A DNA stretch of 64,000 bases from an uncultured Clostridia bacterium (lineage in GTDB: Bacteria; Bacillota; Clostridia; TANB77; CAG-508): positions 37,323-101,322 of the forward strand of contig CAKPGM010000003.1 in the NCBI GenBank assembly GCA_934154805.1. The letters run 5' to 3'. Positions within the stretch are counted from its first letter, which is position 1, and each line of letters begins with the position of its first letter. Under the pieces are notes generated by a model. The model was not told where the DNA came from and searched no databases. It was given only the letters and a program-made list of their open reading frames with translations. Shown here piece after piece: positions 888-2,441 of the stretch. A program made the position numbers and the translations under genes.

Positions 888-2441
888 ATGAGAAAAATAC
901 AAAAAGGAATAACATTAATAGCGTTGGTTGTAACGATAGTTATAATTTTAATACTAGCAGGAATAACAGTGGGAATGGTAACAAGCGATAATGGAATATT
1001 AAAAGAAACCAAAAGTGCAAAAACACAAGCAGAAATAGACAACGAAAAAAGTATAGTGGGAAGAGCAAAAATGCTTACAATGATGAGAGATAAAAGTGGA
1101 AAAATAACCTTTGATGTATTTGCACCAGCGCTAAAAGACGAAGCAGGAACAAACCCAACAGAGGTAAGTGATGTTGGTGATGTGATAGAGGTTTTATTTA
1201 CAGATACAGACAGATATTACGAAGTAGATAAAGATGGAAATGTAAGTGAGCCTAAAGAAATAATTAAAGATGAATATGCAGGAGATATAACCAAAGGTGG
1301 AAGATGTGATGGAAGTGAAGAAAAACCATATGAAATAAACTGCATAGAGGATCTAGTAGCATTGTCTAATATAGTAAATGGAGAAGGGATAAAATTTGAG
1401 AATGGTCAAATAGTACAAATAACAGAATCAGATGGATTAGATGGAAAAAACATAATACTAGTTAGAAATTTAAATTTTAAATCTAAATATTCATATGCAG
1501 ATAGTACAAGAACAGATTTTGGAAATATAAATGGAAATGACACAGATGGAAATATGTTAATAACAGAAATGACAACAGGCAACGGATTTGTATCGATAGG
1601 GTATGACCCTGCTAAATTGTTTGCGGGGATATTTGATGGAAACGAAAAACATATTAATAATATAAATATCAACAATACTGAAAGAACTGTATATAATGGA
1701 GGAGAGGGATTATTTGGAGTAACAGCATATGATTCTAAAATTATAAATCTCACTGTTAGTGGAGAAATTGATGGTGGAGGACTAAGAACAGGAGGGATAG
1801 TAGGATTTGCTCAAGGAAATACAAAGATAATAAATTGTAGAAATAAATGTAATATAAAAAGCAAAAACAGTGTGGGAGGAATTACAGGTACTATAGATGG
1901 AACAACAATAATAATCAATAGTGATAATACAGGAAATTTAGAGGTGATAGAACCTACCAATGATTCATATGTTAGTGTAGGAGGAATTGCGGGAATTGCA
2001 CAAAATTATATAGTTAATTGTTACAATTCTGGGAATGTAAAAAATAATGCCAAAGGTGTGTATAAAGGTGCAGGAGGAATTGCAGGAAATTCAAAATCAT
2101 ATATTGCATATATTTATAATTGCTATAATACAGGAAATGCTACTGGAGAATATTCAGAAGGCTCAATATTAGGTGGTTATTGGTATGGTGAATGGATATC
2201 GATTATTAAAAATTGTTACTATCTAAAAGACAGTAGTAAATATGCAATAGGAAAGGCTGTAACAACCCAAGAATTTGATGCAACGGAGTGCTCAAGAGAA
2301 GAAATGCAAAGTACAGAGATAATAAATAAACTGAATGAATATGTAAAAAATTACAATGAAGAATATAAAAATAATGAAGATTTTGTGGAACTGAAGCAAT
2401 GGAAAAAAGGAGAAAATGGTTATCCAACTTTTGTGGATTAG
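888..2441 (+). CDS. Pilin-like class-III signal peptide surface protein with C-terminal GLUG-type repeats (GGIAG..NCYNxGxV)
   Basis: RBS aaaggag lies 8 nt before the ATG at 888. The N-terminus is MRKIQKGITLIALVVTIVIILILAGIT. The C-terminus has repeated GGI(A/V)G / NCYN(S/T)GN motifs. It is a paralog of the gene at 41300-42775. Confidence 0.8.
   Translation: MRKIQKGITLIALVVTIVIILILAGITVGMVTSDNGILKETKSAKTQAEIDNEKSIVGRAKMLTMMRDKSGKITFDVFAPALKDEAGTNPTEVSDVGDVIEVLFTDTDRYYEVDKDGNVSEPKEIIKDEYAGDITKGGRCDGSEEKPYEINCIEDLVALSNIVNGEGIKFENGQIVQITESDGLDGKNIILVRNLNFKSKYSYADSTRTDFGNINGNDTDGNMLITEMTTGNGFVSIGYDPAKLFAGIFDGNEKHINNININNTERTVYNGGEGLFGVTAYDSKIINLTVSGEIDGGGLRTGGIVGFAQGNTKIINCRNKCNIKSKNSVGGITGTIDGTTIIINSDNTGNLEVIEPTNDSYVSVGGIAGIAQNYIVNCYNSGNVKNNAKGVYKGAGGIAGNSKSYIAYIYNCYNTGNATGEYSEGSILGGYWYGEWISIIKNCYYLKDSSKYAIGKAVTTQEFDATECSREEMQSTEIINKLNEYVKNYNEEYKNNEDFVELKQWKKGENGYPTFVD

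Follow-up and report, generated by a model that had tools for sequence, protein, structure and literature searches.

A stretch of 64,000 nucleotides from an uncultured Clostridia bacterium of the order TANB77 (GenBank assembly GCA_934154805.1, contig CAKPGM010000003.1, positions 37,323 to 101,322), hereafter the window, carries six genes on the + strand, namely c1 to c6, whose products present one common N-terminus akin to that of type IV prepilins and differ in their C-terminal modules. Far from being a local oddity, these genes belong to a family that comprises more than 20,000 sequence clusters. Upstream of four of them, i.e., c1, c4, c5 and c6, a pair of inverted repeats encloses a segment bearing a promoter-like block, and at c5 the inversion of this segment was observed between independent metagenome assemblies of one and the same locus. 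With moderate confidence, these genes are regarded here as a phase-variable repertoire of prepilin-derived surface proteins, displayed while held in the membrane and individually switched by promoter inversion.

The common N-terminus follows the motif K-[G/A]↓IT[L/I]IALVVTIV[I/V][I/L]LILAG, where the arrow marks the presumed prepilin-type cleavage site, and about 45 N-terminal residues constitute the whole extent common to all six copies in BLASTP comparisons. It reads KG↓ITLIALVVTIVIILILAG in both c1 (888-2441, 517 residues) and c4 (41300-42775, 491 residues), KG↓ITIIALVVTIVVILILAG in both c2 (23361-25778, 805 residues) and c6 (56102-59005, 967 residues), KA↓ITLIALVVTIVILLILAG in c3 (32117-33037, 306 residues) and SG↓ITLIALVVTIVVLLILAG in the frameshifted c5 (43144-44512). 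Respective to the cleavage site, Ala is thus found at +5 in six copies out of six, while -1 is Ala in c3 only and Gly in the other five. The open reading frames (ORFs) bear out the description in the earlier note on this DNA, which had placed six genes at these positions, seen the frameshift in c5 and reported Ala at +5 in all copies and at -1 in one. As further revealed by BLASTP, c1 and c4 are paralogues with 45% identity across their full length, c2 and c6 are full-length paralogues with 43-45% identity, and the resemblance of c3 and c5 to the other copies is confined to the first ~45 residues.

When the N-terminal profile was compared with all chain sequences of the PDB, meaningful matches were restricted to true type IV pilins, namely MshA (E=0.006), Geobacter PilA-N (E=0.017) and V. 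cholerae PilA. The alignment to pilins is in register, with G(-1) on G(-1), i.e., KG↓ITLIALVVTIvvLILA in the family for QG↓FTLIELVVVIIILGILA. The sole N-terminal Pfam model matching the family is N_methyl (PF07963), which is found at E<=1e-3 in 37 of 99 diverse relatives; in the window and for a cut-off of 21.2 bits, it scores 21.3 in c4, 19.0 in c1, 15.6 in c3 and 13.3 in c6, with no match reported for c2 and c5. In 378 distinct N-termini, which were gathered with motif-dependent patterns so that the percentages are biased upward, -1 is G (94%) or A (6%), +1 is I (98%), departing from the Phe1 of pilins, and +5 is A (99%) or Ser (1%); the initial homologue search behind these motif statistics used a 68-residue N-terminal query and returned fragments of <120 residues only, and as such did not serve for architectures. 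The leaders of these 378 N-termini are mostly 6-12 residues long, basic and rich in K/R/N, and they precede an almost invariant hydrophobic helix of 21-25 residues (consensus ITLIALVVTIVvLLILAGvsi), itself prolonged by a family-specific extension, namely a conserved NG-I-I-x-K-A-x-x-A segment (G18, N28, G29, A34 and A37).

A hydrophobic stretch behind a basic n-region is also what an ordinary Sec signal peptide, processed by signal peptidase I, or a lipoprotein signal peptide, processed by signal peptidase II, would present. However, none of the six copies has a Cys within its first 45 residues, hence no lipobox, and no A-x-A-type site follows the hydrophobic stretch, as judged from the sequences themselves. 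In addition, a hydrophobic run of 21-25 residues is too long, being far above the length of a Sec h-region, and the profile matches only prepilin or pseudopilin models and pilins. A signal peptide of either type is thus considered very improbable indeed, and the earlier note was right to see a prepilin-like N-terminus rather than a Sec or lipoprotein signal. On the grounds of its sequence, the N-terminus of c1-c6 is a diverged type IV prepilin signal.

Within the shared segment, about half of the identical residues are encoded by differing codons between copies, and such synonymous differences indicate that the N-terminal identity results from selection on the protein; they led to the rejection of recent gene conversion, of cassette recombination and of duplication during assembly as its source. 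The earlier note had suggested a cassette-style repertoire; the repertoire itself is strongly reinforced by the four invertible elements described below, but recombination between copies is not, since the codons differ and no silent cassettes were seen. The variation found is the inversion of candidate promoter segments. Near-invariance at the protein level also bears on a simpler explanation, where the products would be uncleaved type II (signal-anchor) membrane proteins in which the pilin-like sequence is vestigial and provides nothing but a transmembrane (TM) anchor. A basic leader and a hydrophobic helix of 21-25 residues suffice for N-in/C-out anchoring, Glu5 and Phe1 are lost and no linked machinery was found, all of which would suit such an anchor. 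Nonetheless, a plain anchor leaves unexplained the ~20 near-invariant residues and the exact Gly/Ala(-1) of the 378 N-termini, the persistence of this near-invariance despite synonymous-codon differences and over >20,000 clusters, and the in-register match to prepilin cleavage sites; the clade, moreover, retains a prepilin peptidase of the A24 type. Simple anchoring without cleavage is consequently viewed as unlikely.

The evidence for switching comes from the upstream regions, whose alignment revealed a common palindromic motif. Sites of the form ATTAAAT-N5-ATTTAAT are present exactly eight times in the window, for 0.02-0.56 expected by chance, and are arranged in four pairs, 154-156 bp apart, located 5' of c1, c4, c5 and c6. 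In each site, an asymmetric core of 5 nt is flanked by palindromic arms of 9 bp (TAATTAAAT-N5-ATTTAATTA). With an independent repeat finder, the same four switches came out as the four longest inverted repeats of the window, with arms of 28-29 nt that are 93-96% complementary and 126-129 nt apart, for an element of ~185 bp. The switches correspond to positions 639-823 for c1 (repeats 639-666 and 796-823), 41100-41283 for c4 (repeats 41100-41128 and 41255-41283, with 21 nt from the right repeat to the start codon), 42891-43073 for c5 (repeats 42891-42918 and 43046-43073) and 55857-56040 for c6 (repeats 55857-55885 and 56012-56040). Respective left and right cores are ATATA/TATAT for both c1 and c4, ATACA/TGTAT for c5 and AAGTA/TACTT for c6; close relatives add ACATT and ATGTT. 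In 10 pairs out of 10 (window and relatives), which use five different cores between them, left and right cores are reverse complements of each other. As the cores differ between switches and match within a pair, only cognate sites would recombine. Such a requirement for identity of a 5-nt core fits strand-exchange homology, as for a tyrosine-type recombinase. The core of c1 is identical to that of c4, 40 kb apart, so that recombination between these two switches is possible in principle.

While the interiors of the switches are poorly conserved, one block beside one repeat is an exception, namely TTGAtT-N17-TGcTATAwA (nine switches), which is promoter-like in that it reads as a sigma-70-like -35 element followed by an extended -10 element, i.e., a candidate promoter. 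At three switches this block stands on the - strand and faces away from the gene, that is c1 (-35 TTGCTT at 709-704, -10 TATATA at 686-681), c4 (-35 TTGATT at 41170-41165, -10 TATAAA at 41147-41142) and c6 (-35 TTGATT at 55927-55922, -10 TATATA at 55904-55899). At c5, it stands on the + strand and faces the gene (-35 TTGATT at 43003-43008, -10 TATAAA at 43026-43031), the whole interior of this switch being in opposite orientation to those of c1, c4 and c6. Two independent metagenome assemblies, L100 (ERZ15609734) and L101 (ERZ27286937), cover the same 4,476-bp c4-c5 locus, and the only differences between them over this length are three single nucleotide polymorphisms and the orientation of the interior of the c5 switch, positions 3120-3246 of L100 being the exact reverse complement of both L101 and the window. 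DNA inversion at the c5 switch is therefore observed, not inferred. For the switches of c1, c4 and c6, a single orientation was seen in 2-4 assemblies each, identical to that of the window (c1 in L102; c4 in L001, L100 and L101; c6 in L103 and L104); in a further locus (L006), a switch with the c6-type core faces its gene. In distant metagenome-assembled genomes (MAGs), exact repeat pairs ~180 bp apart with other site sequences, e.g., TTAAGTAAAATACTTAA, are located 5' of family genes, and such pairs are present in 38 of 130 family upstream regions versus 18 of 200 random windows.

The one copy faced by its candidate promoter is the frameshifted c5. Its leader ORF extends from 43144 to 43335 (ATG at 43144, 0 frame) and its pilin-like frame, at +1, from 43217 to 44512, one extra A in the run 43222-43226 accounting for the shift. 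Two other assemblies (three in all) carry the identical frameshift, and a related fragment (P0020) is intact and reads through where c5 is frameshifted, which together indicate a genuine mutation rather than a read error. Programmed frameshifting was considered and set aside, because it would need a +1 shift and the A-run is just 5 nt; c5 is accordingly treated as a probable pseudogene.

Whether the products end up in a filament depends in part on the machinery at hand. Pfam scans of the window, together with the precomputed Pfam annotation of matching contigs, gave no T2SSE, T2SSF, PilM/N/O or A24 gene, and neither a T2SSE-type Walker motif nor a canonical G↓FTLIE pilin was encountered in the 1.15 Mb surrounding 134 members (79 loci, 10-kb flanks). 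The claim of the earlier note that no pilus assembly genes lie nearby thus holds in the window and extends to within 10 kb of these 134 relatives. One T2SSE-like Walker motif in L045, met again in L085, proved to belong to an ABC transporter. As regards the prepilin peptidase, which the earlier note had proposed to look for elsewhere in the genome, a conserved A24 gene was found in related genomes and none in the window. In L062, a Peptidase_A24 gene (PF01478, 71.9 bits, 6.9e-20) lies at 12335-13084, 640 bp 3' of a family member, in the gene order sleB-like, family member, yqeG-type HAD, A24, pepP and efp; in the window, c3 holds the equivalent slot after the sleB-like gene. The A24 peptidase (~250 residues) was further found in a constant housekeeping context in 12 metagenome loci (L083-L094), where it never stands beside pilus genes and where the order yqeG-HAD, A24, pepP and efp is always kept, often after a sleB-like gene. 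It has >6,000 database homologues, some of which are named 'prepilin peptidase'. Of the known parts of such enzymes, it exhibits only the catalytic Pfam domain, its N-terminal region being devoid of the usual Cys pairs and giving a faint A24_N_bact match (E=0.045). This N-terminal region is the one linked to N-methylation, and the A24 peptidase of the clade may possibly be a cleavage-only enzyme, which would fit substrates lacking Glu5.

The main rival to the favoured reading is that these proteins are genuine modular minor pilins, i.e., cleaved priming or tip subunits of a filament whose Glu5 major pilin is encoded elsewhere, the tips being chosen by promoter inversion. The N-terminus is indeed pilin-homologous and in register, the architecture is like that of published 'modular pilins', predicted at the tip (PMC8179133), and pilins without Glu5, namely GspK and S. 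sanguinis PilA, take the tip position or are added first (PMC9934059). The clade has an A24 peptidase, and pilin-sized members of 160-180 residues exist, including ten in tandem in L051. In a truncated AF2 model, strands come after a long N-terminal helix, and pilins are among its structural neighbours, if weakly so. On the contrary, no assembly ATPase, platform protein or Glu5 pilin was found in the window or <=10 kb from the 134 members, and the number of Glu5-less copies per genome (at least 12-14) far exceeds the needs of a tip complex. No convincing pilin globular fold was found in the predicted models; in the AF2 model of c3, residues 50-306 are confidently predicted (pLDDT 82.6) as helices, a five-strand domain, a helical domain and an Ig-like domain, and the N-terminal 45 residues are uncertain. 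Furthermore, reports of filament machinery in TANB77 are limited to a Tad-like system, which comes with pilin-like genes of its own (PMC11680825). Use as tip subunits on a filament encoded elsewhere is hence judged somewhat improbable. The earlier note had set these proteins apart from true pilins, a distinction that is at most probable, given that bulky modular pilins devoid of Glu5 are known as tip subunits.

In canonical filaments, Glu5 neutralises the N-terminal amine of the neighbouring subunit (PMC9934059). Considering Ala+5 throughout the family, the at least 12-14 copies found in single MAGs and the lack of linked machinery, a membrane-held, stalk-like display is favoured over body subunits of a canonical pilus, and we think that most members are predicted display proteins of this kind. 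Under the favoured reading, each gene would encode a modular surface protein that would be inserted into the membrane, cleaved just behind Gly/Ala(-1) by the A24 prepilin peptidase that the clade conserves as a stand-alone gene, and kept at the cell surface by its pilin-type helix with a variable ectodomain outside (GLUG, DUF285/LRR, Ig-like, FGE-sulfatase-like and others). A ~185-bp invertible element bearing a sigma-70-like promoter would individually govern each of at least four of the six genes, and a site-specific recombinase encoded elsewhere would act in trans to flip the segment between the 28-29-nt inverted repeats, with a phase-variable surface coat as the outcome. Cleavage, surface anchoring or polymerisation, the assignment of on and off states and control by a promoter within the switch are all features that we infer, as is the trans-acting recombinase, which would probably be of the tyrosine type.

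Several observations weigh against this reading. Regarding the signal, five of the six window proteins are below the gathering cut-off of N_methyl, no NCBIfam prepilin model (e.g., TIGR02532) reports any of the six, for which only faint N-terminal matches to GspG/PpdD are obtained, and Glu+5, the defining residue of pilins, is replaced by Ala in all six copies. Regarding the machinery, the A24 gene is seen in related genomes and absent from the 64-kb window; in addition, a conserved Tad-like pilus cluster with seven adjacent pilin-like genes is described in TANB77 (Kim et al. 2024, PMC11680825), so that the clade does possess some form of filament machinery, even if this cluster was not seen beside family members in any of the 79 loci. 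Regarding the switches, the site search in the window gave none for c2 and c3, only at the frameshifted c5 is the promoter-like block directed at the gene, and Pfam scans of the window products revealed no integrase or resolvase domain. Finally, the -10 hexamers end in A and not T, and a consensus promoter scanner does not call these blocks, 'on' and 'off' being thus assigned from conservation and geometry.

Comparison with known systems helps to situate the family. Among its C-terminal modules are GLUG and BspA-type leucine-rich repeats (LRR), which we take to be the entries IPR011493 and IPR026906, respectively. Raynaud et al. 2021 (PMC8179133) described 'modular pilins', proteins combining the IPR012902/N_methyl motif with a domain not specific to pilus biology, and both IPR011493 and IPR026906 are among the partners listed there for IPR012902. 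In the window, extra domains are present in c1, c6 and c5, but N_methyl is above cut-off only in c4, itself without an above-threshold extra domain. Like the family, modular pilins such as S. sanguinis PilB and PilC associate a short prepilin-type N-terminus with adhesin- or enzyme-like modules and are predicted to be displayed at the surface; in contrast, they possess the canonical Glu5 and are encoded in a pil operon with assembly genes, whereas the present family exhibits Ile+1/Ala+5, the NGII-KA-A segment, no linked machinery and multiple copies. The GspK of type II secretion systems and S. sanguinis PilA (PMC9934059) similarly lack Glu5, and a bulky or unusual pilin would find room only where no subunit sits above; these pilins, however, are single-copy, belong to a minor-pilin operon and are essential for priming one filament, whereas here a whole paralogous family is devoid of Glu5. 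In Sulfolobus, the sugar-binding proteins of the bindosome (PMC3047682) likewise carry non-pilin ectodomains on a prepilin-type signal for which Glu5 is not required; these are archaeal and rely on a dedicated Bas assembly operon, while nothing like this operon was seen here, where the signal is of the bacterial N_methyl type. It may tentatively be proposed, with clearly less confidence than the favoured reading, that the family corresponds, in bacteria, to the archaeal surface proteins bearing class III signals, i.e., a peptidase-dependent and filament-independent display in which the pilin helix without Glu5 would be the principal anchor of adhesins and enzymes in gut Clostridia of the TANB77 type, and dozens of genes per genome would be switched by one trans-acting recombinase through sites with shared arms and private cores. 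The TANB77 Tad-like cluster and its 'pilin 938' (PMC11680825) share with the family the clade, single-TM pilin-like surface proteins and a proposed immunological relevance, but consist of one conserved operon (CpaB, TadZ/CpaE, TadA and TadBC) with seven pilin-like genes lacking the N_methyl signature, in contrast to a dispersed, N_methyl-like and multicopy family.

As for switching, promoter inversion is well known from the capsule switches of B. fragilis and from the cwpV and flgB switches of C. difficile, flipped by the tyrosine recombinase RecV. Invertible promoters (invertons) upstream of surface genes have been surveyed in gut bacteria (PMC11602134, PMC11892184). The present switches resemble these invertons by their short inverted repeats around 130-200 bp, their position 5' of surface genes, arms common to several of them and the natural occurrence of both orientations; they differ by their targets, pilin-like modular proteins of uncultured Clostridia, and by a covarying 5-nt core proper to each switch. 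In the literature, no paper tying TANB77 or this family to invertons or phase variation was found. While modular pilins, Glu5-less tip pilins, archaeal class III signals on non-pilin proteins and invertons at surface genes are already known, no description was found of the Ile1/Ala5 helix family with its extended motif, its scale, its orphan genomic status and its control by invertible elements with private cores.

The extent of the family was established with a 77-position N-terminal profile scored against 1.84 billion cluster representatives (clusters at 50% identity), of which 32,402 matched at E<=1e-3 and 21,358 at E<=1e-10. In the best matches, Ile at +1 and Ala at +5 are all but universal, and Gly, less often Ala, occupies -1; these figures are likewise biased upward by motif-dependent retrieval. 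The members come from uncultured gut Clostridia of low G+C content, TANB77-type MAGs included. A scan of one genome per species yielded at least 508 confirmed matches, the best 80 of which belong nearly all to records titled uncultured Clostridia or Clostridium MAGs, with Clostridium sp. CAG:245 and CAG:508 among them and human, Hadza, Nepali, Brazilian and rabbit guts as sources. Both CAG-245 and CAG-508 are placed in the order TANB77 (Kim et al. 2024, PMC11680825). Copies of the window's strain apart, the DNA identity of related loci to the window is at most about 80% and mostly ~66-77%. The 134 members examined in 79 loci often form tandem arrays, and the array of L051 (4181-10483, from a rabbit-gut Clostridia MAG) comprises the ten members of 160-180 residues mentioned above, with nearly identical first ~60 residues; these may be the best candidates for a pilin fold or for filament formation by the family. 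Homologues of c3 number 6,236, one being named 'type II secretion system protein' by NCBI; among those listed, most have roughly 100-200 extra C-terminal residues, and a few of these extensions are LRR_5. A phage origin of the family was considered and rejected, with no tblastn match in 50,697 phage records and only five weak ones in 2.9 million viral contigs.

Within type IV pilin biology, Glu5 is held to be nearly indispensable, and yet >20,000 clusters keep the helix almost letter-perfect with Glu5 replaced by Ala and Phe1 by Ile, which makes the role of Glu5, and the possible uses of the prepilin signal, directly testable. Since it accounts for about a tenth of the genes of the window, with at least a dozen copies per small genome, the family is likely a major part of the cell surface in an abundant uncultured clade of the human gut. 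TANB77 has been linked to the response to checkpoint immunotherapy via a 'pilin-like' protein (PMC11680825). Should the filament-independent display hold true, the antigenic surface of this immunotherapy-correlated clade could be dominated by the phase-variable coat. According to the invertible elements, the surface repertoire probably varies within natural populations, which bears on strain tracking, antigenicity and use as a marker or adjuvant. More generally, switches with private cores exemplify how many sites for one enzyme may coexist in a chromosome.

At their C-termini, the six proteins differ much as the earlier note had stated, and the swapping of modules is real. Following Pfam, the C-terminal region of c1 contains GLUG repeats (33.4 bits for a cut-off of 20.5), as announced; a module of ~100 residues in c1 is also present in c4, its paralogue, which gave no GLUG match of its own despite 45% identity. 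Both c2 and c6 possess an Ig/PKD-like region, for which the PKD matches are under cut-off, and DUF285-type repeats, long in c6 (75.9 bits, 2.9e-21) and assigned in c2 by homology to c6. This DUF285 is the BspA-like repeat of Mycoplasma/Listeria and not LRR_5, so that the LRR and PKD assignments of the earlier note are amended here, when that of an FGE-sulfatase-like C-terminus in c5 stands (27.2 bits for a cut-off of 23.3). No domain was assigned to c3 by the Pfam scan. Among 99 diverse family members, the modules include LRR_5 (16), LRR_8 (6), FGE-sulfatase (4) and DUF285 (2), as well as GLUG, GDSL lipase, Big_2 and Laminin_G_3. One member (P0241, 706 residues) presents two complete N-terminal modules in a single ORF, at residues ~8-60 and 389-454, and may be a read-through fusion of tandem genes; at the other extreme, some members are the ~70-residue N-terminal module alone, e.g., P0039 (74 residues, 15 contigs).

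Around the switches, some further features were noted. Between the c5 switch and the start codon, the consensus scanner calls TTGATT-17-TATAAT at 43086-43114, for 2.6 chance matches expected per 300 bp; if this site were functional, the c5 switch would modulate rather than gate c5. A palindrome, AAAAC-N5-GTTTT, is present exactly three times in the window (838-852, 43095-43109 and 56061-56075), each time in the 5' leader, 15-26 nt past the right repeat of the c1, c5 and c6 switches, and is absent from the 21-nt leader of c4; it might act as an operator or form an RNA hairpin. The away-facing block of c1 points at a divergent DUF4912 gene starting at 481 (- strand) and that of c4 at a divergent AMP-binding gene starting at 40975 (- strand), so the c1 and c4 switches might toggle between two genes rather than between on and off. 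With respect to recombination, the sole related gene in the window encodes a YhgA/Rpn-like Transposase_31 (9554-10540, 98 bits), which to our knowledge is not known as an invertase. In two other loci, XerC/D-type tyrosine recombinase genes (Phage_integrase, 5e-49) are located ~400-600 bp 5' of family members (L028 8723-9601 and L063 4952-5830), with no inverted-repeat pair between the recombinase gene and the family gene in either locus; they may be housekeeping xerD or candidate invertases.

The remainder of the window, with a G+C content of 29%, is ordinary bacterial housekeeping, e.g., lepA, a SpoU methylase, a MiaB/RimO-type radical SAM enzyme, dnaG, rpoD, pflA/pflB, nusB, xseA/B, fhs, nrdD and ligA. 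Just 5' of c2 and in the same orientation are genes for two small single-TM proteins with no Pfam family (181 residues, 22494-23039, and 96 residues, 23049-23339), and a divergent XRE-type regulator is nearby (22003-22332); c2 may be regulated as an operon rather than by inversion. Lastly, a protein of 195 residues encoded at 45332-45919 exhibits one N-terminal TM helix and matches the archaeal Pilin_N model below cut-off (E=0.0068), probably by chance.

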